DNA of 64,000 bases. Origin: Escherichia coli. Its GTDB lineage: Bacteria; Pseudomonadota; Gammaproteobacteria; Enterobacterales; Enterobacteriaceae. Numbering within the stretch: position 1 is the stretch's first letter; the number at the start of each line of letters is the position of its first letter. Below are positions 22,679 through 64,000 of this stretch, piece after piece. Below the pieces are notes generated by a model that saw nothing but the letters and a program-made list of their open reading frames with translations, did no database searches and was not told the origin of the DNA. Both the position numbers and the translations under genes were made by a program. The stretch lies in the NCBI RefSeq assembly GCF_024502345.1, contig NZ_JALDNN010000001.1; one strand, written 5' to 3'.

Positions 22679-22754
<76 letters not shown>

Positions 22755-22789
22755 TTGGGTGGTCTGTGCCTTACAGCACTTTCAAATTT

Positions 22790-22865
<76 letters not shown>

Positions 22866-22901
22866 TTGGGTGGTCTGTGCTTTGCAGCACTTTTCAAATT
22901 T

Positions 22902-22977
<76 letters not shown>

Positions 22978-35415: not shown

Positions 35416-36971
<1,556 letters not shown>

Positions 36972-37059
36972 AATTTCATCGGGTCCGAATTTTCGGACCT
37001 TTTCTCCGCTTTTCCTTGCTGTCATCTACACTTAGAAAAAAACCAGTAAGGAAACATTT

Positions 37060-37593
37060 ATGCGCCTGCTCCCTCTCGTTGCCGCAGCGACAGCTGCATT
37101 TCTGGTCGTTGCCTGCAGTTCTCCTACGCCGCCGCGTGGCGTGACCGTAGTGAATAATTTCGACGCTAAACGCTATCTCGGTACCTGGTATGAGATTGCC
37201 CGTTTTGATCACCGCTTTGAACGTGGACTGGAAAAAGTCACCGCAACATACAGCCTGCGTGATGACGGCGGCCTGAATGTCATTAATAAAGGCTATAACC
37301 CTGACAGAGGAATGTGGCAGCAGAGTGAAGGGAAAGCGTACTTTACCGGCGTACCAACTCGCGCTGCGCTGAAAGTGTCATTCTTTGGTCCTTTCTATGG
37401 CGGTTATAACGTCATTGCACTTGATCGGGAATACCGCCATGCGCTGGTTTGCGGCCCGGACCGCGACTACCTGTGGATACTCTCCCGCACGCCAACCATT
37501 TCTGACGAAGTGAAACAGGAGATGCTGGCAGTCGCGACCCGGGAAGGGTTTGATGTCAGTAAGTTTATTTGGGTACAGCAGCCCGGTAGTTAG
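37060..37593 (+). CDS. blc: Outer-membrane lipocalin Blc
   Basis: 177-aa ORF with lipobox (VVACSS). Confidence 0.9.
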
Positions 37594-37907
37594 TGAGTGC
37601 TGAGTTTCAGACCAATAATCCCCAATACGATTAACGCCAGACTCGCCAGGCGCATCGGGTTAGCGGACTCACCGAGCAGTACAATGCCGGTGATGGCCGC
37701 GCCGACTGCGCCAATACCCGTCCACACGGCATAAGCCGTCCCTACTGGTAACGATTTCATCGCCCAGGCAAGTAGCGCCATACTGACAATCATCGCCGTC
37801 ACAGTAATAACACTCGGCGTCAAACGACTAAAGCCGTGGGTATATTTCAGGCCAACGGCCCATACCACTTCCAGCAGACCAGCAATAACTAAGATAATCC
37901 AGGACAT
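37590..37907 (-). CDS. gdx: Guanidinium exporter Gdx (SugE, SMR family)
   Basis: ORF 37590..38057; canonical 105-aa product starts at [26 protein letters not shown]. Confidence 0.9.
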
Positions 37908-37929
37908 ATCAGGCTCCGGAGAATTGGGG

Positions 37930-37985
37930 CCGTCCCCGGTGAAAAGACGCGTTTGCAGGTCGTCCTGCAAAGCTGATGGTTGAAC
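37930..37985 (-). ncRNA. Guanidine-II (mini-ykkC) riboswitch in the gdx leader
   Basis: Minus strand carries two short GC stems with ACGR tetraloops: UUGCAGG-ACGA-CCUGCAA (37963-37980) and GGGG-ACGG-CCCC (37936-37947), just upstream of gdx. Confidence 0.7.
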
Positions 37986-38082: not shown

Positions 38083-38229
38083 TTATTGCTGCGCTTTCGT
38101 TGCTGCACCAGAAATCGCGTTACCGCCATCAGAAATGTCTTCACCAACGCCACGCGTGGTGTTGCAGGCAGTTAATACTGTTGAAAGCACCAGAACAGAA
38201 AAGATCGCTGCAATTGTCTTCTTCACCAT
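38083..38229 (-). CDS. ecnB: Entericidin B lipoprotein
   Basis: Manual minus-strand translation gives [48 protein letters not shown] (48 aa) then TAA. Confidence 0.85.
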
Positions 38230-38275
38230 AACGTCTTCCTTTTAGGTAATGTTATTTATGTTTGCCTATAGCAAA

Positions 38276-38464
38276 TTAATAATAGACAACATCGCCAAAA
38301 ATGACGGAAATCTGATGATTTTTCGGAAGAGAAGAAAAATAGCTGGCAGCGCGAGAGATGGAGTTGCCGAGATGTTTGATGTCTTCGCCGAAACCGCGAG
38401 CGGTGTTACAGCCCGTGAGCAGCGTGCTGGCAAGCAAAACAAGAACGATAAGGCGTTTCATCAT
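38276..38464 (-). CDS. ecnA: Entericidin A lipoprotein, apparently C-terminally extended (62-aa ORF; canonical end would be at 38342)
   Basis: ORF begins MMKRLIVLVLLASTLLTGCNTARGFGEDIKHLGNSISRAAS and continues with a TAT codon where I expect a stop. Confidence 0.7.
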   Translation of the reverse strand: MMKRLIVLVLLASTLLTGCNTARGFGEDIKHLGNSISRAASYFSSLPKNHQISVIFGDVVYY

Positions 38465-38515
38465 CTCTGACCTGAATAAGTGATGGTGCAGCCTGCAGGC
38501 CGCACCATAACCGCA

Positions 38516-39082
38516 TTACTTCACGCGAGAGACGTATTCACCAGAGCGGGTATCCACTTTGATGACTTCGCCGATTTGTACGAACAGCGGAACTTTAACC
38601 ACAGCGCCAGTAGACAGGGTAGCCGGTTTGCCGCCAGTACCTGCGGTATCACCTTTCAGGCCCGGATCGGTATCAACGATTTCCAGTTCAACGAAGTTCG
38701 GCGGAGTAACGGAGATCGGCTGACCATTCCACAGAGTTACGATACACTCTGCCTGATCCAGCAGCCATTTAGCGTTATCGCCAATTGCTTTTGCATCAGC
38801 AGACAGCTGCTCGAAAGTTTCGTTGTTCATGAAGTGCCAGAACTCACCGTCGTTGTACAGGTAAGTCAGGTTCATATCGACAACATCAGCGCCTTCAGCG
38901 GAATCAGTAGATTTGAAGGTTTTTTCTACGCGAGTACCGGTCAGCAGACGACGCAGTTTAACGCGAGCAAATGCCTGGCCTTTACCCGGTTTTACGAATT
39001 CACTCGCTTCAACCGCGTAAGGTTCGCCGTCTAACATGATTTTAAGACCAGCACGAAAATCGTTGCTATAGTACGTTGCCAT
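38516..39082 (-). CDS. efp: Translation elongation factor P
   Basis: 188-aa ORF beginning [42 protein letters not shown] (Lys34 modification loop). Confidence 0.95.
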
Positions 39083-52144: not shown

Positions 52145-52220
52145 GCCCGGATAGCTCAGTCGGTAGAGCAGGGGATTGAAAATCCCCGTGTCCTTGGTTC
52201 GATTCCGAGTCCGGGCACCA
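52145..52220 (+). tRNA. pheU: tRNA-Phe (GAA)
   Basis: GCCCGGATAGCTCAGTCGGTAGAGCAGGGGATTGAAAATCCCCGTGTCCTTGGTTCGATTCCGAGTCCGGGCACCA, 76 nt with GAA anticodon. Confidence 0.95.
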
Positions 52221-53071
52221 ATATTCATAAGGCCTCGCTGCAAAGCGGGGCTTTTTCCTTTTCTGGCTACGGTAGATTTCTGGTCGTTGCGGCACGTTAT
52301 TTGTTTGCTGGATTTCTCGCCATTTTCGCAGTTGTTCGTTACTTTTAGACACCTCAACATCCTTTGATGTACCTTTTCCTAACCTCACAGCTACGGTCTT
52401 TCTACGGTCCTCTACGATTCCTTTCTCTCAGAGCATTCATAATAAAGTAGAAAATACGGGGAAAACGGGGGAATTATCATTTCGCCCTAATCCGCAGGTC
52501 TTAACGTGATTTTGTCGCGGGGAATAAGGTGGGGAAATCCCCAATAGCAAGCGGGGAAATCTGGCAGCATACCCCCTCCACCATTCACATGGGGATCTTC
52601 ACCAGTCCGTCCACCTACAACAAGCTCTTCTTGCCCTTTCACTTCTTACCGTTTTCAGAATCCCCCGTTCTCCACGCCATCATAAAATGATTTATCCGTA
52701 AGCTTAACGTAATGGACTGTTGAACCTGAGTGTCCGCTGTGAGCGAAAAGCGGAACTTCTCACATAGGTAATGAAGCGTTTCCTAACGTCAGGGTGTACT
52801 AATCAACGAAGAGCAGGTCAGAGGACTCGAACCGCTTTCCTCTTCCATCTACGTAGAATTCCAAGAATTTATGTGCTTTCCAGTTACAATTTAGCCATGC
52901 TAAGTTAGAAAAAGCATTGAGTACCTTAGGATTGTATCGATGATACTCTAAGGATCTTGGAGGCTTGTGAGGCGTAAGGTTCAAAGCCAATAGTTTATTA
53001 ATAGTCACACAAGTGGCTCTATTTTTCGCCTACAAACCTATATTTTTCATACAAATAAAAGAAGTGTATTT

Positions 53072-54490
53072 ATGAATACTCAGCAAATTAAGGTTGGCAG
53101 TGTACCTGAAATTATTGAGCTATTACCAAACTCTAGCGAGCAGGCTGATTCTCATCCTTTCATCCTATCGGCAAACAGTGCATGGGGTGAACAGGGAGCA
53201 GAAATATCAATAGAGAGATTACGCCAAAATATCGAGCCTTGGCTAACAGCTCTCTTCCAATCCGAACATTTAAATTTATTGATAGGTGCGGGTTTAAGCA
53301 CGTCTATTCAAATATCGGCTACAGATTCACCTCCAGCTGGAATGGGTTGGATCAGCGATCTAGCCGTATGTAAAAGTGAAATAGATGCATTTTCTACTCT
53401 GGCTGCCAAAGCTGCAGGTCGCGATAACGGAAATATAGAAGATCAAATTAGAGCTATTAATGAACTTATTAAAGGGCTTGAAATTCTGACAGTGTTGAAT
53501 ACCCCTCAACCTGAAAATCCTCCAGCTCCTCATGCTGCTTATAGAAATCTAAAAACGGATTTAGAAATACTCAAGGGAGAGCTTTCTCGCTGCCTAGGTG
53601 AGTTTTCAAGATCTGTGAGTGCCGGAGAATACTTGATTAAAACTGCTGAACCAAAGCGTAAAGAGGAAACTTTCAACTATCTAGTTAGTTTCTTGATGAG
53701 CTTTGCAAGTAGGACCGCTACTCGCGATAGGTTGCATATTTTTACAACAAACTATGATCGCATTATTGAAGTAGGTGCTGAGCTTGCTGGTTTGAGACTT
53801 ATAGATCGCTTTGTAGGAAGTATCGCTCCAGTGTTTCGATCTTCAAGATTGGAGGTTGATTATCACTATAATCCTCCAGGAATTCGTGGCGAACCAAGAT
53901 ATTTAGAAGGCGTAGCGCGTTTTACTAAGCTTCATGGATCCCTTGATTGGCATGAACAAAATAGCGCGATTAGGCGCTTTGGTTTACCTTTTGGAGCACG
54001 TTCTGTTGAACCTTTTTTAGAAGCTGAAGGCCATCAAAGCAACAGCTTTGAACAACTTATGATTTACCCTAACTCAGTAAAAGATAGAGAAACTGCCGAG
54101 TACCCTTATGTTGAGCTATTTCGAGATCTAGCCGCAGCAACTAGCCGCCCAAATAGCACATTAGTCACCTATGGCTATAGCTTTGGTGATGAGCATATCA
54201 ACAGGGTAATTGAAGACATGCTTACAGTGCCTTCGACTCATGTAGTCATAATTGCCTTCGGAGATCCGCTTGGAAGAATCATAAATTTCATTAATAAGAG
54301 TGGAAGAAAAGCACAGATCACCCTATTAATGGGAGACCATTTAGGAGACCTCAAGACTTTAGTTGATAACTATTTACCTAAACCAGCTATTGATAAAGCA
54401 TCAATAAAAATGACTGAATTGCTTAAGCAAAGAGGATTTATCCAGCCCAAAGAATTAGGTAATTCAACTGGCTCCGAGGTATCACAATGA
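53072..54490 (+). CDS. SIR2-like NAD-binding protein (candidate NADase effector of a SIR2-HerA defence pair)
   Basis: 472-aa ORF with Rossmann GAGxS (LLIGAGLSTS), a sirtuin TQNID-like motif (FTTNYDRIIE) and a catalytic-His motif (FTKLHGSLDWHE); AT-rich. Confidence 0.7.
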   Translation: MNTQQIKVGSVPEIIELLPNSSEQADSHPFILSANSAWGEQGAEISIERLRQNIEPWLTALFQSEHLNLLIGAGLSTSIQISATDSPPAGMGWISDLAVCKSEIDAFSTLAAKAAGRDNGNIEDQIRAINELIKGLEILTVLNTPQPENPPAPHAAYRNLKTDLEILKGELSRCLGEFSRSVSAGEYLIKTAEPKRKEETFNYLVSFLMSFASRTATRDRLHIFTTNYDRIIEVGAELAGLRLIDRFVGSIAPVFRSSRLEVDYHYNPPGIRGEPRYLEGVARFTKLHGSLDWHEQNSAIRRFGLPFGARSVEPFLEAEGHQSNSFEQLMIYPNSVKDRETAEYPYVELFRDLAAATSRPNSTLVTYGYSFGDEHINRVIEDMLTVPSTHVVIIAFGDPLGRIINFINKSGRKAQITLLMGDHLGDLKTLVDNYLPKPAIDKASIKMTELLKQRGFIQPKELGNSTGSEVSQ

Positions 54491-56520
54491 GTTACTTACC
54501 AATAGAAAGATTAGAACAATTAAGAATTGGATCTGTTGGATTTGTATCACCTAATGAAATTAGAGTTTCTTTAGAGATTGACTCCCCTGATTCAGTGTCA
54601 CTTCAAGGCGGTTCCCCCCGCAATTTTCCTCGAATAAATAGTTATGTACTGATCAGTAGCGATGATGGATTTCTCGTCGGACAGGTTGAATGGATTGCCG
54701 TAGAACACTCTCCATACCCCAAAAGAAGAGGCTTACAAGATTTTGGCTTGATAGATCTTCCTTTTCCACTTAAAAAGCTCAGTATCAATCCCGTTGGTAC
54801 TTTGAGAGTCGATAGAAAAAACGAAGATTACAAGTTCACAAGAGGAACAGATGCTTTTCCCTCGGTTGGTGACTCCGTGCTCCTGCCTACTGACCGGCAA
54901 TTAAAATCAATAATAGAATCAGGTGACAATAGAAGAGTAAAAATAGGGGACAGCCCCCTAGCTAACAATGCGGAAATAAAAGTGGACCCTGATAGGCTTT
55001 TTGGACGACATTTAGCTGTTTTGGGCAATACAGGTAGTGGTAAATCATGCTCGGTTGCGGGGTTAATTCAATGGTCTTTAGATGCTGTTTTACAACAGGG
55101 ACAGATTCCAAATGCTCGGTTCATAATACTTGATCCAAATGGAGAATACAGTAGGGCATTCGGCCCAGAATCAAAATACAAGGGTAAGCTATTACGTGTA
55201 GAAGCTAACACTGGTGCTGAAGAGATAGATCTTAAAGTTCCGTCATGGTTATGGAATAGCTCTGAGTGGGGTGCTTTCACTCAAGCGAGTTCAAAAGTTC
55301 AACTTCCTTTACTACGCCGAGCTTTGAGGGCGATGAGAAATGATGTTTTATCAGAAGATGATGTGACAATCCAAGCGAAACACTTCTGCGGTATCCTACT
55401 CGTATCCATACGACAATTATCAAGCCAAGGCCAGATATATGTGAATGGCGGCCATGCCAAAGGTTTCGTTGATAGTTTAACGTCTTGGAATAATAGCCTG
55501 TCCACATTAAACGACAAAATCGATAACAAACCTTTCGATAATCTAATAAACACGATGAATGTGTATCTTTCCTCTCGTATAGGAATAAAATGGCCTGAAA
55601 AACCTGAAGTTTCAGATACTGATCAGTTGATTAATGAATTAAAAAATGCATATGAAACGCTTGGAGGTGATGAACAAGGACTTCTTCCAAAAAGTGAAGA
55701 TTCGCCTATTCGTTTTAAAGGGGATGATTTTGTCGCATACCTAGAAGCTCTAGCTCAAGAGACAGGCACAGAGCAATTCGTTGAATTCCTTTTGACTCGT
55801 ATTCGAACAATGCTAGGTGACACCCGTATAAGTGCAGTAACAAATGATTCGGAACAGCCTATCAGTTTAACTAATTGGTTAGACACTTTTCTCGGTAGAG
55901 ATGGACAAGGTTCCATAACTGTTATCGATTTATCGCTAGTCCCTAATGAAATAATACATTTGGTAACTGCTGTAATTTCCAGAGTAACTTTTGAAGCATT
56001 ACAACGTTATCGAAGACTTAAGGGGAAACCACTACCAACAGTTATGGTTGCAGAAGAAGCGCATACATTTATTAAACGCTACAAAGAAGATAGTGAGGGT
56101 CAGTCAGTCTCTGACGTATGCTGCAAAGTGTTTGAAAAGATCGCACGTGAAGGCAGGAAATTTGGGTTAGGTCTTGTAGTTTCTTCCCAACGACCCTCAG
56201 AGCTATCTCCGACTGTGTTATCTCAATGTAATACTTTTTTGTTGCACAGGATTAGTAATGATAGAGATCAAGAGCAAGTCCATAGACTTGTTCCCGATAA
56301 CATGAGGGGGTTGTTGAGGGAGTTGCCATCGCTACCATCTCGGCATGCCATTCTACTAGGATGGGCTTCTGAACTTCCGGTTTTAGTTAGAATGAAAGAG
56401 CTTACTGAAAAACAAAGACCACAATCTGACGATCCCGATTTTTGGGATGTGTGGTCTAACACTACAGAAGAGCCTCGCGAAGTTAATTGGCAACCAATAG
56501 CTGATGATTGGCAAAGTTAA
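54487..56520 (+). CDS. HerA/FtsK-like P-loop ATPase (candidate partner of the SIR2-like protein)
   Basis: 677-aa ORF; Walker A LAVLGNTGSGKS, Walker B VMVAEEAHTF, downstream VVSSQRPSEL motif; ATG overlaps the upstream stop (ATGA), consistent with translational coupling. Confidence 0.75.
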   Translation: MSYLPIERLEQLRIGSVGFVSPNEIRVSLEIDSPDSVSLQGGSPRNFPRINSYVLISSDDGFLVGQVEWIAVEHSPYPKRRGLQDFGLIDLPFPLKKLSINPVGTLRVDRKNEDYKFTRGTDAFPSVGDSVLLPTDRQLKSIIESGDNRRVKIGDSPLANNAEIKVDPDRLFGRHLAVLGNTGSGKSCSVAGLIQWSLDAVLQQGQIPNARFIILDPNGEYSRAFGPESKYKGKLLRVEANTGAEEIDLKVPSWLWNSSEWGAFTQASSKVQLPLLRRALRAMRNDVLSEDDVTIQAKHFCGILLVSIRQLSSQGQIYVNGGHAKGFVDSLTSWNNSLSTLNDKIDNKPFDNLINTMNVYLSSRIGIKWPEKPEVSDTDQLINELKNAYETLGGDEQGLLPKSEDSPIRFKGDDFVAYLEALAQETGTEQFVEFLLTRIRTMLGDTRISAVTNDSEQPISLTNWLDTFLGRDGQGSITVIDLSLVPNEIIHLVTAVISRVTFEALQRYRRLKGKPLPTVMVAEEAHTFIKRYKEDSEGQSVSDVCCKVFEKIAREGRKFGLGLVVSSQRPSELSPTVLSQCNTFLLHRISNDRDQEQVHRLVPDNMRGLLRELPSLPSRHAILLGWASELPVLVRMKELTEKQRPQSDDPDFWDVWSNTTEEPREVNWQPIADDWQS

Positions 56521-56941
56521 TTAACTTAACTAATTTTTAGTAGTGTTATAAGTAGTGGCTTATATCTGACATGACAGTTTAGGTTAGTAGTTTCAATCTA
56601 ACAGTAAGTGTCCACGGTGACGTTTTCATACTCAAATCTCCTGAAATGTGGGAGATTTGAGTATGGTTGTCCCTTATGAGCGAGGAGCGGAAGTTCTGCT
56701 TTAAGTGTATCAAACCCTCCAGCAAAGATGTTCTTGAATGTAATGCCATAATTTCCCTAACATTCCAGCACAAATCAATTAACTCTCAGTCCATAGTGTA
56801 TTTTACTTAAATTAAAATCAAATACTCTAGGAATTAAAATAACAAGATCACTTGCGATTATGCTATTTTAAATTAATATTTTTGTTTTTACTGGGGAACC
56901 TTCAAAACACGGAGCCAGATTTCTTCGTAGCTACCCTGTTG

Positions 56942-57766
56942 CTAGGGTTTCAAGTATTCCCCTAAAGGAAAGAAATTTTTTGACAACTTTTGGGATTCAG
57001 CAATTTTAACCAAATAAATATAGAATCCCAACAGAGCACTGTTCTCGCTTTCCCCCCTCGAATAGTGAACATGCCCAGGCACCTTCCGGATGAGGAAACC
57101 ATTATTTTTTACCAAATAATACCCTCTATCTAAAATTGTAATTACATCAGGCATATCATCTAAATCGATATTATTTCCAGTCATGTAATTAAACAGCGAA
57201 TCTCGTAAGGTACTTTCCTCTGGACCTTGGAAGGCTAGTAGTAAGAATGGTGTTTTTCTCAAGGTTGCACACATCCCTGAGATTTCCTCTACTAATTGCA
57301 CTGTATTTTGGGGAATATTTTCTTTCATAAAATAACCATCGTCAATACCGATTGGATTGATTCTTACCAAACCTTTTGACCTAACGCAAGCATCTAAGGT
57401 TGTCTTAAGGTTTGAAGCTCCTTCGGTCATTGAGCCAGTGTTTAATGAAGATTTACATTCAATTAACGCTAAAGCTGAATCGACAGGGACCATACACTGA
57501 TCTTTATCATAACTAAGTTTTAAAGAATGTTTCGAGTATATGATAATATCCATCTGACTTGAGAGATTATCCTTAGAGTCAAAAACCTGTCCTGATGTAA
57601 TATCTAAATTACTAGGGAGATTTGCTTTTAAAAATTCCCTTATTACAATTTCTCTAGCACTTCCTTTGCTACTCCCGTTCGTCGTTATGGATGACAAATT
57701 AAATGCTGAAACCAAAGATGCCGTATGGTTTTTTAAGTGTTTCTGGATTAATTTCATAAAGCTCAT
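56942..57766 (-). CDS. Hypothetical protein, possible PD-(D/E)xK-type nuclease
   Basis: 274-aa AT-rich ORF convergent with the SIR2/HerA operon; contains D...ExK-like residues (QMDIIIY ... ALIECK); start codon uncertain. Confidence 0.4.
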   Translation of the reverse strand: MSFMKLIQKHLKNHTASLVSAFNLSSITTNGSSKGSAREIVIREFLKANLPSNLDITSGQVFDSKDNLSSQMDIIIYSKHSLKLSYDKDQCMVPVDSALALIECKSSLNTGSMTEGASNLKTTLDACVRSKGLVRINPIGIDDGYFMKENIPQNTVQLVEEISGMCATLRKTPFLLLAFQGPEESTLRDSLFNYMTGNNIDLDDMPDVITILDRGYYLVKNNGFLIRKVPGHVHYSRGESENSALLGFYIYLVKIAESQKLSKNFFPLGEYLKP

Positions 57767-58194
57767 TCCATTTTAATTTATCTACATCGCTTAAAGGCAA
57801 ATGATGCCACCGGCTACCAATTAAAAATTATCTCAACCTGAGAGATTTTTCCAGACTCCAAACGAAAATAAAAAACTACTCGTCACGTCCCTCCTGGCAC
57901 ATAGCCGACACCAAAACCAGCAACATATGGACAACGGTCCCTGCCCTGATGGCAGGTAATTGTATCAGACTTAAACACATATTATTTCTGTGAACTCCCC
58001 CCAACGGCAGTCCTTTCCTCTGAAGACCAGAACCAGACCGTAAAGCCTGCTCTTTCTGCATTTCCCGTATTAATTCATACCATGTGGCACCAGCATTCCC
58101 TTCGCCACACCAGAAAATCAATTCCCCAATAAAAAAGTGCCGTGCCGGGGATGGGTCAACCCTGACGTTCTTTACACCAGTCACAGGAGGTTAT

Positions 58195-59379
58195 ATGTCC
58201 ACCCCCAAACGCTTCCGTTTTACTAATCAGCTCATTAAATCCCTGCCCCCTAACACATCCGATGCACGCAGTACCGATGCCGAATACAGCGACACCGAGA
58301 TTTCCGGCCTCAAGTGTCTGGTCAGCAGAAGAGAAGGTCGTAAAAAGTTTTTGCTACGCTACCTTTATCATGGACGAAAACGCGCCATCGCCATTGGTCA
58401 CTGGCCTGAAGTGGACGTCAATCTTGCTCGTCAGATTGCCATAGAACACAAACGTTCCCTTGCCACCGGCACTGACCCTAAGCAGGAGCGTGAAAACAAG
58501 AGAATGGAGCTGACGTTCGATGAACTCTTTAATCAGCATTATCTGCCATGGGCAAAATCCGCTAAACGCAGTTGGGGAAAGGATGTTCAGCGCTACCGCG
58601 ATCATATCCGTCCCGCCATTGGTCAGAGGCTGCTGAGCGATATCACACCAGCGAGCATTCTGCGCCTTCAGCAGACGTTAAGTACTTCCCTGTCAGCAGC
58701 TACCTGTAACCGTGTCATCGTACTCATTAAAGCCGTCTTTACATGGGCCGGAAGGCAAAGCATGACCTCTGTCCATCCGGCAAGGGTGGTACAGCTTCTC
58801 AGGGAGAACAACGCCCGACAGCGCTATTTCACCGAGGACGAAATTCGTCGTATTTTTCTCTCCGCCGATAACGATACCAGCCCCGTCGCGGCCCGCTATG
58901 TCAAACTGTTGTTACTGACCGGCCTTCGTCGTGATGAGCTGCGTCTGGCTAAGTGGGAGCATGTTGACCCGGTTAAACGCACCCTGTGGCTCCCGGAAAC
59001 CAAGAATGGCTATGGGCGGATTGTTCACCTTAACTCACTGGCGATGGACGTAATCAGAACGCTGCCAACGCAGCGGGGAAATCCGTGGTTGTTTATCGGT
59101 AAAAAACAAGGAATGCCGCTGAATAACCCCGTTAAAGCCTTTCAGCGTATCGTTCGTCGGGCGGGAATTTTCGACCAGGAAGTGTGTATTCATACCTGCC
59201 GCCATTCGGTTGCCGCCCTCATCGTGTCCTACGGCGGAACACTGTATGACGTTCAGGCTCAACTGGGGCACCGCAGCAGTCAGTCTTCACAACGTTATGC
59301 GCATCTTCACCCTCAGCGCTTACAAAACACCAGTCAGTTACTGGCGGAAAGGATAACGGCTCAGCTACCGTCCTTGTGA
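58195..59379 (+). CDS. Tyrosine recombinase / phage-type (P4-like) integrase
   Basis: ATG at 58195 preceded by AGGAGG; 394 aa; C-terminal catalytic R..HxxR..Y signature (HTCRHSVAALIVSYGG ... LGHRSSQSSQRYAHL). Confidence 0.85.
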   Translation: MSTPKRFRFTNQLIKSLPPNTSDARSTDAEYSDTEISGLKCLVSRREGRKKFLLRYLYHGRKRAIAIGHWPEVDVNLARQIAIEHKRSLATGTDPKQERENKRMELTFDELFNQHYLPWAKSAKRSWGKDVQRYRDHIRPAIGQRLLSDITPASILRLQQTLSTSLSAATCNRVIVLIKAVFTWAGRQSMTSVHPARVVQLLRENNARQRYFTEDEIRRIFLSADNDTSPVAARYVKLLLLTGLRRDELRLAKWEHVDPVKRTLWLPETKNGYGRIVHLNSLAMDVIRTLPTQRGNPWLFIGKKQGMPLNNPVKAFQRIVRRAGIFDQEVCIHTCRHSVAALIVSYGGTLYDVQAQLGHRSSQSSQRYAHLHPQRLQNTSQLLAERITAQLPSL

Positions 59380-59389
59380 TAACAGAAAA

Positions 59390-59418
59390 GCAGAGGCAAG
59401 TGCCCCTGCTTTTTTTTT
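59390..59418 (+). terminator. Rho-independent terminator between convergent genes
   Basis: Hairpin gcagaggcaagtgcccctgc followed by a run of nine T. Confidence 0.6.
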
Positions 59419-59434
59419 ACTGTTCAGCCATCAG

Positions 59435-59791
59435 TCAGAACGGGATGGCCCCATATTCTTCATCCGGCACCCGGTTATCATCAAATCTGTTATAGAGTTC
59501 ACGAGCACACTCGCGCGCGTCTTTAATAGACATACGAGGGAACCTGCCGAGGGGTTCATAATAGCAGGCCCCTTCAAGCGTATAACGAGCCAGGAATTTA
59601 ATCTCACCGTTGGCAATGACGGCCCGGAGCGCAGGCTCGCTGCCATCGAAGATTTCACGAGAAATGCCGTGATAAAGGCACTCCGCCAGTGTGTTAACCA
59701 GAGCGTAATCATTGAATGAGGTTTTTTCTTCATTTTCGCTGCTGATAGCGTGAGGAAAACCGTCATAGTACTGGTCTGATTCAAAAATCAT
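59435..59791 (-). CDS. Hypothetical protein
   Basis: 118-aa ORF downstream of the replication-like gene; no recognisable motif. Confidence 0.35.
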   Translation of the reverse strand: MIFESDQYYDGFPHAISSENEEKTSFNDYALVNTLAECLYHGISREIFDGSEPALRAVIANGEIKFLARYTLEGACYYEPLGRFPRMSIKDARECARELYNRFDDNRVPDEEYGAIPF

Positions 59792-59840
59792 ACATCACCT
59801 TCTATTGGTTGTTATTCAGTCAAAATGGTTTTATTCAGGG

Positions 59841-61769
59841 TTAAAATTCGGTCATCACATTGCATTTCAGAAACGCTTTTTTGACCTGGTAGTAAGACTG
59901 CGCCATCGTCTTCAGCGCTCTTTTTTTATAGTGTCCGGCACTTTCGCCAAGCAGATAACCGGAACGCTCTAACGGTCTGGCCACATCAACGGTCTTAAGT
60001 CCCTTTTCAGAACAGAGCTTTTCAAACACCGATTCATAAATCAGGAAGTCGCCGGTTTTGTAATGGACGAATCCCCACATATCTCCCGGGCATCGGGCAT
60101 GTTCGTCACGCAGGGTGATAAAGTGCCTGCTGCTTTTTGTCACCAGCGTCAGCTGAAGCTCCTCCAGCATGTTACGCACCGGGTTATACTGATTCTGGTT
60201 ATCATCCAGCCAGCGTCGTGCAGCGGACATAACGGATTCAGCCACCGCATCGCTTTCGAAAGGTAAAAGGCCATATTTCAGCGCCTTCTCTCCTGCCAGC
60301 CATACCAGCGCAAATCTTTTCAGTCCGCGCCGCTGAACGCGGGTAATATCACGCCCCTCATCCCTCAGGGCCTCTTCCAGTGCGTTACAGCAATCATCTG
60401 TCTGTTCCTGGAGCCAGGATGAAAACTCTGCGTAGGTGCGAAGACCGCCAGCCGTATTTTTCCCGGATAACAGTTTGCCGATAAATGCAGGCCCGGCATG
60501 ACCATAAGCCTCTGCCAGCCCCGTCTTCAGTGCATCTGCACGGGCACGTGTTTCTGATACCGGTTCATCCGGTTTTTGAGCATCCTCAGGCAACAGTTCC
60601 ATACTGATGGCCCTGTGCTCCTGCCCTCCCTGTAACACGGCTTTCTGTTCAGCCAGCTTTTCGGAGATTGACATCTCACCGGTGGAGAGAATAAACATGC
60701 GCCATTTAAACGGCTCATCTGCCGTCAGGCCACGGTTCAGGCGCTCTTTTGCCGTACCTGACGTAATGTTGTAAAGCAGTGAGGAAAGTTGCTTATGATT
60801 ACTCGCACCCAGTTCATCGACGCAGGCGACCAGACCGGAATAGTCAGCGAGAAGGCGCTCCATCGCGTTAGGCGTGGTATTCCAGCGAATAATATTTACA
60901 TTCCCCCCACTACCCGGCTCGCTGCCATCACCATGGACCGATGCAGCCAGCATCAGGAGAAGCGTTTTACCGGTGGTGGATACGCCGTGAAAATGAAACA
61001 TGCCCACATCCATACCGGCAGGAACCAGAAGCATCGAAGCAAAGGACGCACTCAGTGCAAAGGTCTGCGCCCAGCCATGGACATTTTCCCGGATGAGGTT
61101 AATCCACTCCTCCAGGGCCCCACCTTTGTGCAGTCCGGGACGCACGCGGAATCCCGGCAGTAGATAATCAAACCCGGTCAGAGAGGTCACAACGGGCTCA
61201 TGACCATGTAAAAAGGCCATATCCTCCGAAACGAATCCCATCGCATCTGCCATCAGATAGACAGGCAGCGGTAAACTCCGGCAGCGCTGAAGAAAACGGT
61301 CAAAAAGGGCAAACTGCTGTGGAGAGGAGCCAACACAAAATCCACGATCTGCCAGTTTGCCTACTACCTGAGCACCGCTCTGAACAATATCCTCAAAGCG
61401 TACCAGGGCCTTAACATACTTACCCAGCCCGTTACCGGTCATCAGGCTGATCCCAAGACCGGACTCCTTATCTTTTCCACAAAACAGGGCGACAGGCACA
61501 ACTGGCGTGGTGCAAACCTGCACAGGTTTCTGTCCACCGATGTAGAAAAGGCCATTAGCCGTATTCACATAATGCCGTGGCAGCCCATCACCAATACCGA
61601 GTGAAGCGATATCATCTTCACCGACCTCAGTGTTTTCAGCACGCCTGATAATTGCTTCCGACATTTTGTTGAAATTTTTATCGCGGTCAGCAAAAGCGCG
61701 AATACGCTTAATCCCGGAAACCTTAGGAACATTAGTTGTCACTTTTTTATTCATGTGTATTACCATCAA
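59841..61769 (-). CDS. P-loop NTPase, putative primase/helicase-like replication protein of an integrative element
   Basis: 642-aa ORF with Walker A (HGVSTTGKTLL) and a DE box (VACVDELG); immediately downstream of an integrase; start codon uncertain. Confidence 0.5.
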   Translation of the reverse strand: MMVIHMNKKVTTNVPKVSGIKRIRAFADRDKNFNKMSEAIIRRAENTEVGEDDIASLGIGDGLPRHYVNTANGLFYIGGQKPVQVCTTPVVPVALFCGKDKESGLGISLMTGNGLGKYVKALVRFEDIVQSGAQVVGKLADRGFCVGSSPQQFALFDRFLQRCRSLPLPVYLMADAMGFVSEDMAFLHGHEPVVTSLTGFDYLLPGFRVRPGLHKGGALEEWINLIRENVHGWAQTFALSASFASMLLVPAGMDVGMFHFHGVSTTGKTLLLMLAASVHGDGSEPGSGGNVNIIRWNTTPNAMERLLADYSGLVACVDELGASNHKQLSSLLYNITSGTAKERLNRGLTADEPFKWRMFILSTGEMSISEKLAEQKAVLQGGQEHRAISMELLPEDAQKPDEPVSETRARADALKTGLAEAYGHAGPAFIGKLLSGKNTAGGLRTYAEFSSWLQEQTDDCCNALEEALRDEGRDITRVQRRGLKRFALVWLAGEKALKYGLLPFESDAVAESVMSAARRWLDDNQNQYNPVRNMLEELQLTLVTKSSRHFITLRDEHARCPGDMWGFVHYKTGDFLIYESVFEKLCSEKGLKTVDVARPLERSGYLLGESAGHYKKRALKTMAQSYYQVKKAFLKCNVMTEF

Positions 61770-61838
61770 ATTACGCCACCGTCAGAAAACGGGTGCATCA
61801 GAACCATAGTTAAAAACCATACCGTTGAGTGAAGGTTG

Positions 61839-63251
61839 TTACCCCATCGCCCGGTTAACGACTTCGTGGTAACGCGCCGGGGAAGCGTGCAAGTAAAGCT
61901 CCGTTACTTTGATAGTGCTGTGACCCAATAAGTCTTTGACGGTGTGAATGTCGGCCCCGCTCTCAATGAGCTTTGTCGCAAAGGTATGACGCATCTCATG
62001 GATGGTGAACGGTGGAATACCCGCAGCCTCACAAAGTCGTTTTTGCAGGCGACGCGGCTCAGCAACCGGATTGTCGGTTCCCTTGCCCGGAAATACCCAG
62101 CCTTCATCACCCAGATGCTGACGCTGTTCTGTCAGAAGAACGAAAGCCTTATCACATACCGGTACACGGCGTAGTTTGCCGTTTTTGGTATGGCGAAGGG
62201 TGATAACCTTGCGGCTCCAGTCCACATCTTCAAGACGAAGGTGACGGGTTTCCCCCAGACGCAGCCCCGTCAGGGCAAGGAACATGAGAAGAGCAAGGGC
62301 TTCATGATCGGGTTTACCATTACGCCAGCGCTCACAGACGTCCATCCAGCGCTGAAGCTGGGAGTCATCCATGGCACGGCGATCTGACGTCACTTCAGGC
62401 AGCGCTTTGATATAAAGCGCCGGAGAGCGGCTGATGTATCCCATGCGTATAGCCCAGGTAAACACCGCTTTAATGAGCGCCAGATGGCGGTTGCGGGTGG
62501 CAGGCTTGAGATCGAGATTATGCAGATAGCTCAGAATATCTGCCTCCGTCATACCTGCCAGCTTTTTGTCACCGAGAAGAGGGCGCAGGTATTTACGGAT
62601 CTTAGAAAGGTCGGTGTTAGCTGAACGCTTAACGCCCGTGCTGAGTACGCTTTTCTCATACTCATCCACAAGCTCATTAAACGTCATTTTACTGTGAGTA
62701 AGAAAACGCTCACCGTAAGCCTCAACGGCGGTCTTGAGCTCCTGAATTATTTTAAAGGCATGCTCCCTTGCATCTTTAATTGAAATTTCCGGGTAGCCTC
62801 CTACGGCAACGTAGATATTCTTTCCGCGAATACTTTTGCGGACAATAAATTTAATGCGACCTGATGGATAGAATATTGCCTTAAGTCCGGTTAACTTCTT
62901 ATCGCTGGTCTCGATTGTTTGTGCAGCTTGTACTGCACGGATTTTATATTCATCAAAAAGGGCTTTAGTAAAAACACCTCCAGTATTTTTAGGTGCAACC
63001 CCTGGATATTCTACAACATCAGATACTCCAGAGTCGGAATACCCCTGAGCTTCCACATCTACATTGAAGGAATTTTTATGAGCAGCTGTGATGCTCTTTT
63101 CATCCAGCACTTGCGTTATTTTATTTAAAGGGTAATTAACTTTCATAATATGTACATGGTCCTCTGAAAATTCAGATGATAATGAGTAATTTAATATGTC
63201 GGCCAACAATGGGATAAGCTTATTTATTCGTGGCATCACTTTCAAGCCCAT
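61839..63251 (-). CDS. Tyrosine recombinase / integrase (second copy, distinct sequence)
   Basis: 470-aa ORF; catalytic signature RLGETRHL ... HEMRHTFATKLIESG ... LGHSTIKVTELYLH. Confidence 0.8.
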   Translation of the reverse strand: MGLKVMPRINKLIPLLADILNYSLSSEFSEDHVHIMKVNYPLNKITQVLDEKSITAAHKNSFNVDVEAQGYSDSGVSDVVEYPGVAPKNTGGVFTKALFDEYKIRAVQAAQTIETSDKKLTGLKAIFYPSGRIKFIVRKSIRGKNIYVAVGGYPEISIKDAREHAFKIIQELKTAVEAYGERFLTHSKMTFNELVDEYEKSVLSTGVKRSANTDLSKIRKYLRPLLGDKKLAGMTEADILSYLHNLDLKPATRNRHLALIKAVFTWAIRMGYISRSPALYIKALPEVTSDRRAMDDSQLQRWMDVCERWRNGKPDHEALALLMFLALTGLRLGETRHLRLEDVDWSRKVITLRHTKNGKLRRVPVCDKAFVLLTEQRQHLGDEGWVFPGKGTDNPVAEPRRLQKRLCEAAGIPPFTIHEMRHTFATKLIESGADIHTVKDLLGHSTIKVTELYLHASPARYHEVVNRAMG

Positions 63252-63479
63252 GAAAAATCAGCTCTTACATGCCCATTGACATTTAATACTCAAGTCAGAA
63301 AGACCATGATGATTCATCAGGAGTACTCCTGCTCAGGGAAAAGGGAAAATAGCGTTAAACCCTATAAAAAAATTGTGTTCCGGATGCATCGCCCAAAGTA
63401 AGTCAACTTTTGAGGCCCTGAAGGGCTTTGTTGAATAAATCAGATTTCGGGTAAGTCTCCCCCGTAGCGGGTTGTGTTT

Positions 63480-63884
63480 TCAGGCAATACGCACGCTTTC
63501 AGGCATACCTGCTTTCGTCATTTTGTTCAGCGCTCGTACCAGGGCCATAGCCTCCGCAACCTGACCATCGTAGTCACGCAGCGTCAGTGAACCCCCGAAC
63601 AGCTGTTTTACCCGGTACATCGCCGTTTCCGCTATCGAGCGACGGTTGTAATCTGTTGTCCATTTCCACCGCGCATTACGCTGATTAGCCACTGCACGGT
63701 TACGGTCTGCATATTCACCGGGCCAGTAACCCGCACCTTTTCGGGGAGGGATAAGCGCGCTGATTTTCTTACGCCGCAGTTCATCGTGACAGAGCCGGGT
63801 GTCGTAAGCGCCGTCTGCCGATGCTGCCCTGATTTTTCTGTGAGTCTGCCGGATAAGACCCGGGAAGGCTTCTGAGTCCGTCAC
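63480..63884 (-). mobile_element. IS5-family DDE transposase, C-terminal fragment (truncated or frameshifted)
   Basis: 134-aa ORF with DGAYDT and RSIAETAMYRVKQLFG (IS5-type D..E region); reading frame breaks upstream. Confidence 0.55.
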
Positions 63885-64000
63885 ATTGTTCAGCGACAGG
63901 TCAGCGCAGATGATTTCATGTGTTTTACTGTCAACGGCGAGATGCAGCTTACGCCAGATACGGCGGCGTTCCTGGCCATGCTTTTTGACTTTCCACTCGC

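Follow-up and report, generated by a model that had tools for sequence, protein, structure and literature searches.

According to Bishop et al. (1998), as cited in PMC5389655 and PMC7296081, entericidin A (EcnA) serves as the antidote in the ecnAB toxin/antidote locus. PMC7296081 notes that the Keio collection contains a viable ecnA knockout and that the antidote role of EcnA has been questioned. The ecnB promoter (ecnB P) is described in PMC5389655 as a σ38-dependent promoter that σ70 uses poorly, that contains OmpR sites, and that is repressed by OmpR; between +1 and +20, the paper locates a −10-like pause motif of the form TGcTATA(A/C)T, with +5 as the tested base. ecnA is annotated as a gene of 126 nt, or 41 aa, in five of the five references used here (06-00048, HS, B C2566, G4/9, and K-12 MG1655). 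The E. albertii orthologue also has 41 aa and those of Citrobacter, Phytobacter, and Salmonella bongori have 44, a difference from E. coli that lies in the signal peptide. The C-terminus of every orthologue aligned, from E. coli through S. bongori, reads SIS[RH]AA[SR] and is directly followed by a stop codon.

The 64,000-nt stretch of Escherichia coli DNA analyzed here (the window) carries an ecnA with a different end. Its ORF begins with ATG and encodes a 62-aa product, MMKRLIVLVLLASTLLTGCNTARGFGEDIKHLGNSISRAASYFSSLPKNHQISVIFGDVVYY, in which residue 41 is followed by a 21-residue tail, YFSSLPKNHQISVIFGDVVYY. The product scores 113.1 bits against the NCBIfam entericidin A model NF007319 (cut-off, 86 bits), with residues 1–41 only aligned to model positions 1–41 of 41, and Pfam PF08085 (entericidin) is listed for the gene calls. 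These 41 residues are identical to K-12 EcnA (b4410, 126 nt) at both the protein and DNA levels, and they include the lipobox L16-T17-G18-C19, read from the translation and the same as in K-12, at which lipidation is predicted. The gene lies between efp and ecnB with all three on the minus strand, which is the position of entericidin A and the order in the five annotated references, and the synteny efp-ecnA-ecnB-sugE/gdx-blc-ampC is that of K-12. The window gene is an ecnA allele by descent, and its predicted product is off the family pattern in both length (62 aa against 41–44 aa) and C-terminus (21 residues past S41). The preliminary description had called this ORF ecnA, which is borne out by the full-length model match and the identity to K-12. 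It had also reported that the gene runs past its normal stop to give 62 instead of 41 aa and that codon 42 is TAT (plus-strand ATA), and both points agree with the ORF listing, the five references, and the coordinates in Table 1.

Compared with K-12 ecnA, the gene in the window has lost one A from its stop codon, which extends the mature peptide from 23 to 44 residues, a computed change from about 2.4 to 4.9 kDa. The EcnA proteins of Citrobacter, Phytobacter, and S. bongori share with the window the lipobox, the GFGEDI core, and the SIS[RH]AA[SR] motif, with ecnB about 110 nt downstream. Unlike the window protein, they have no C-terminal extension. This C-terminus is conserved across genera, and the extension in the window is therefore off-pattern.

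Table 1. Coordinates of the extended ecnA ORF, its parts, and neighboring features in the window
Feature	Position	Strand	Remarks
Extended ecnA ORF	38276..38464	−	62 codons plus TAA stop; ORF listing and NCBIfam NF007319
Canonical EcnA part, codons 1–41	38342..38464	−	Signal peptide, lipobox, and 22 mature residues after C19; same DNA as K-12
Former stop codon, now TAT (Tyr42)	38339..38341	−	Plus-strand ATA; one reference A missing beside 38340
Tail codons 43–62	38279..38338	−	ecnA-ecnB intergenic DNA in the references; otherwise normal intergenic sequence
New stop TAA of the extended ORF	38276..38278	−	Sequence and ORF listing
efp (elongation factor P), upstream neighbor	38516..39082	−	Fixes the synteny efp-ecnA-ecnB-sugE
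sugE/gdx, downstream neighbor	37590..37907	−	Gene call in L005 mapped to the window; annotated so in the references
ecnB (entericidin B, 48 aa), intact	38083..38229	−	NCBIfam NF007487
Pause motif TGCTATAGG	38265..38273	−	Only fit to the PMC5389655 description; almost no variation among the aligned species
Inferred −10 hexamer TATTAT of the σ38-dependent ecnB promoter	38279..38284	−	Supplies the two Tyr codons at the end of the extended ORF

Alignments of the window with the five references contain a single gap column at the ecnA stop. Where the references have AGC TAA TTTTT, the window has AGC TAT TTTT; one A of the TAA is deleted and the frame is shifted. The deleted base belongs to the AA dinucleotide, and the neighboring T5 homopolymer has the same length in the window and the references. 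The preliminary description had proposed a single-base change; the alignments and translations identify a 1-nt deletion (TAA to TA-) and not a substitution. Substitution of TAA by TAT was rejected on the same grounds: in the reference it would yield another, longer tail, YFFFSSEKSSDFRHFWRCCLLLICYRQT, and because the observed tail is in a different frame, a frame shift is needed. Templated mutation at a quasi-palindrome was rejected by inspection; an ATTTTTC...GAAAAAT inverted repeat directly follows the stop, but the deletion does not improve the palindrome. The 21 codons of the tail are close to the chance expectation before a stop in an arbitrary frame (64/3, about 21 codons), which makes the length of the tail uninformative. 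Across the 511-nt ecn region, the window departs from the closest reference at one further site only, 38508, where G has become A.

Probes for the two alleles were compared with a collection of 5426 complete E. coli genomes. The 39-nt deletion-allele probe, centered on the missing base, had no match among them, and a 66-nt probe likewise had no exact match. The 40-nt reference-allele control probe matched 5263 of the 5426 genomes, so the negative result with the deletion probe is not a filtering artefact. The preliminary description had named a 62-aa form in reference genes as a result that would refute it; the deletion probe was present in 0 of the 5263 control-matched genomes. The exact 62-aa protein was found on 119 contigs from four sources (NCBI, ENA, JGI/IMG, and Logan) and is listed in 225 index blocks. 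Among the papers searched, none describes loss of the ecnA stop or a frameshift in this gene in E. coli.

Two of the explanations offered in the preliminary description were a sequencing error and a strain polymorphism. If the missing A were a sequencing or assembly error in the window, the real ecnA would encode 41 aa. A single-base indel beside a T5 run, its absence from every control-matched complete genome, and the low coverage of some other carriers, which are metagenome contigs, are all consistent with an error, but the base is lost from the AA dinucleotide with the T5 length kept, and the same deletion occurs in separate assemblies. GCA_050032135.1 (L005) carries it with 100% identity to the window across 6189 bp, GCA_050032195.1 (L025) with one SNP in 7134 bp, GCA_023599245.1 (L009) with four SNPs, and GCA_053255715.1 (L006) with identity over the shared blocks. 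Long ENA metagenome contigs also have the deletion on a near-identical or identical background. Because these independent near-identical assemblies all carry the deletion, an error in the window is very unlikely and this explanation is almost certainly wrong. The evidence supports the strain polymorphism.

Among the 24 longest carrier contigs, 20 are L005-like. This points to one main carrier clone, and the window belongs to a clone in which the allele is fixed. The best identity of a complete genome to the window is 99.1–99.3% over 24-kb stretches, and the allele is missing from the complete-genome collection because the clone has no close relative there. The exact AmpC, YjeJ, and SIR2 proteins of the window are labeled E. 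coli in NCBI. A search via the exact AmpC allele did not find a near relative without the deletion; the genomes recovered by this route differ by about 1% in DNA. No insertion-sequence interruption was found in the first 52 kb of the window, based on the ORF map and single-piece alignments to E. coli. A Shigella origin, considered because of the low best identity to complete genomes, was rejected on this finding and on the E. coli labels of the three proteins.

Other carriers have different surroundings. The 64.8-kb metagenome contig L007 has the same deletion with 59 SNPs relative to the window in 6.2 kb, including positions 45 nt before ecnA and 135 nt past ecnB. Carrier L015 has a 6-bp AGCAAT insertion after ecnB, as in strain G4/9, carrier L012 shares with strain HS a characteristic combination of variants past ecnB, and carrier L016 has the signal-peptide variant T14A. 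The local haplotypes of carriers L011 and L014 are also unlike the window, and the tail variants P0003, P0023, P0024, and P0025 represent further backgrounds, including a K-12-like intergenic haplotype. At least one carrier haplotype is clearly distinct from that of the window, and the number of such haplotypes is probably larger. Some carriers with other haplotypes are short metagenome contigs with low coverage (L011, 0.73; L013, 3.05). The apparent recurrence may reflect recurrent mutation, short-tract recombination, or, in part, errors or chimerism; alternatively, recurrence on several haplotypes could result from selection. The G-to-A change at 38508 is common to the clone (L005, L006, L008, L009, and L010) and is not present in L007 or other carriers. 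It lies at the foot of a hairpin after efp (38483–38508), where a possible G-U closing pair becomes A-U.

The homology search recovered a scatter of rare ecnA length variants in public assemblies. In P0027, which has the NCBI name 'lipoprotein antitoxin entericidin A', a TAA-to-TTA stop-loss gives a 57-aa product, and in P0026/P0039 tails in the other frame give products of 65–66 aa. Like the window allele, these are rare stop-loss or frameshift changes at or near the ecnA stop that lead into the same intergenic DNA; unlike it, they use other frames and have other tails. Some intragenic ecnA frameshifts enter the same frame as the tail of the window. The window allele is the commonest of the C-terminal ecnA variants, with 119 contigs against 1–4. 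The number of rare length variants indicates that the gene either tolerates such change or accumulates it at low frequency. A second rare class comprises N-terminal fusions of 55–59 aa, in which small indels near the start codon join an upstream out-of-frame ORF to EcnA and the MMKRL N-terminus is partly or wholly replaced (P0021, P0028–P0037, P0044, P0047, and P0050). One 57-aa form of this class is on 93 contigs, including a contig of 4.95 Mb.

The effect of the tail on EcnA was predicted from the translated sequence. With the signal peptide and lipobox intact, the signals for secretion, lipidation, and sorting should be unchanged. The tail contains one proline, has the hydrophobic end ISVIFGDVVYY, and is not amphipathic; its helical hydrophobic moment is 0.05–0.37 against 0.5–0.75 for the native part. 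An EcnA that is weakened, unstable, or unchanged would each be possible, and, given the conserved C-terminus, the tail may do more damage than 'nearly neutral' implies. The viable knockout and the doubted antidote role make tolerance of a damaged EcnA plausible. In a rival reading, the gene is decaying, and ecnA is a pseudogene in the making that encodes an unstable or nonfunctional extended protein. The departure from the conserved C-terminus, the dispensability of ecnA reported in PMC7296081, and the deletion in the adjoining blc-ampC region of carrier L006 are in keeping with this idea, but the HMM match is full length and codons 1–41, the start codon, and the upstream region have no further lesions in the window or the clone. 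A decaying gene is a real but doubtful possibility.

Downstream of the tail, ecnB is intact. Its product matches NF007487 at 121.9 bits (cut-off, 94 bits) over model positions 1–48 of 48 and is identical to that of strain 06-00048. Comparison with K-12 shows no difference in the ecnB gene, in its Shine-Dalgarno sequence, or in the DNA between the inferred −10 element and the ATG. The window thus retains the intact ecnB and promoter sequence that mark the ecnAB locus, with the promoter properties taken from PMC5389655. TGCTATAGG is the only motif that fits the pause element in that description, which places the transcription start near 38271–38273 and TATTAT at the −10 position. By this placement, the extended ORF would stop directly after the −10 element and upstream of the start site, and the deletion would be near −68. 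Because the inferred start is downstream of the new stop, the extension would be missing from mRNA made at ecnB P, with no effect on the core promoter.

RNA elements around the deletion were also considered. The Rfam scan of the region found no RNA element besides the Guanidine-II (mini-ykkC) riboswitch upstream of sugE/gdx (37925–37971, minus strand), which scores 49.3 bits against a gathering threshold of 32 and is a previously known element found where it would be expected. A terminator or known RNA element hit by the deletion was rejected after a terminator scan, which returned only a weak 5-bp hairpin at 38293–38306 and the ecnB terminator. The pyrimidine tract UCUUCC (38325–38330, minus strand), located just after the old stop, could base-pair with GGAAGA (38235–38240, minus strand), the Shine-Dalgarno sequence of ecnB.

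In another reading, the deletion would be adaptive and shift the entericidin balance toward the toxin, a kind of change raised as a possibility in the preliminary description. Either the EcnA antidote would be disabled, or ribosomes crossing UCUUCC would unmask ecnB on putative ecnA-ecnB read-through transcripts. The two sequences pair in the minimum-free-energy folds of both alleles and are complementary in register in 82% of cells across seven sequences, compared with 43–57% when the partner is slid. The register is kept in E. albertii, Citrobacter, S. bongori, and Phytobacter. Conservation of the EcnA C-terminus across genera and the same deletion on several haplotypes can be read in the same direction. 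Against this, the folds have weak z-scores (−1.3 to −1.5) and represent about 1% of the ensemble, RNAalifold did not recover the pairing and returned an unfavorable covariation term, the register is kept without covariation, and shuffled sequences match the observed values. The Shine-Dalgarno side is nearly invariant (two of eight columns vary), so real covariation is impossible. Conservation of the tract would be accounted for equally well by a putative UP-like element of the promoter, at about −58 to −47. The allele is also very rare, and the scatter of other random ecnA length variants is just as wide. An adaptive deletion of either type is improbable. The specific proposal that the deletion is a recurrently selected switch that raises EcnB from read-through transcripts, through crossing of the tract or a crippled antidote, is highly improbable; if it were true, stationary-phase lysis would be altered in the carrier lineages.

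The window very probably carries a genuine, rare natural allele of ecnA that is tolerated, is neutral to mildly damaging, and is found in one uncommon clone and sporadically elsewhere. Loss of one A from the ecnA TAA removes the stop and shifts the frame. Translation would then continue for 21 codons across the ecnA-ecnB intergenic DNA and end at the TAA after the inferred −10 element of ecnB. The predicted product would keep the signal peptide, the lipobox, and the 23-residue mature EcnA and acquire a tail that is unselected and non-amphipathic and ends in a hydrophobic stretch. Such a variant would be tolerated as a neutral or hypomorphic EcnA in one uncommon clone, with a sporadic origin elsewhere. 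The 62-aa product is not proposed as a new functional form of EcnA. The entericidin locus is already known, and the stop-loss is a strain polymorphism and not a new kind of feature. The consequences are mainly for annotation, since gene callers will list a 62-aa 'entericidin' or a pseudogene in the carrier lineage. The stop-loss allele can also mark one uncommon E. coli clone. Should the longer EcnA prove inactive, the carriers would be natural ecnA hypomorphs with an intact ecnB and would be useful for revisiting the antidote role, which is in doubt because the knockout is viable.

Several other features were observed in the window and its relatives. In L006, about 100 bp take the place of about 671 bp that cover the blc and ampC 3′ ends (corresponding to window positions 36689–37359), and the yjeJ/epmB side is rearranged too. 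Within the window, a tRNA-Phe gene (52145–52220, plus strand) is followed by a genomic island (window positions 52145–64000). At least 80% of the island stretch is present in only 2 of the 5426 complete E. coli genomes, at 98% identity. The island encodes an anti-phage SIR2-HerA pair (53072–54490 and 54487–56520), identified by PADLOC with E values of 2.7e-154 for SIR2 and 2e-252 for HerA, a PD-DExK/NucC-like nuclease (56942–57766, minus strand), a DUF927 helicase-like gene (59841–61769, minus strand), and two tyrosine integrases (58084–59379, plus strand, and 61839–63251, minus strand). At the site of this island, K-12 has cadCBA adjoining pheU. Three tandem tRNA-Gly(GCC) genes (22679–22977, minus strand) are ordinary for this region of the E. 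coli chromosome.
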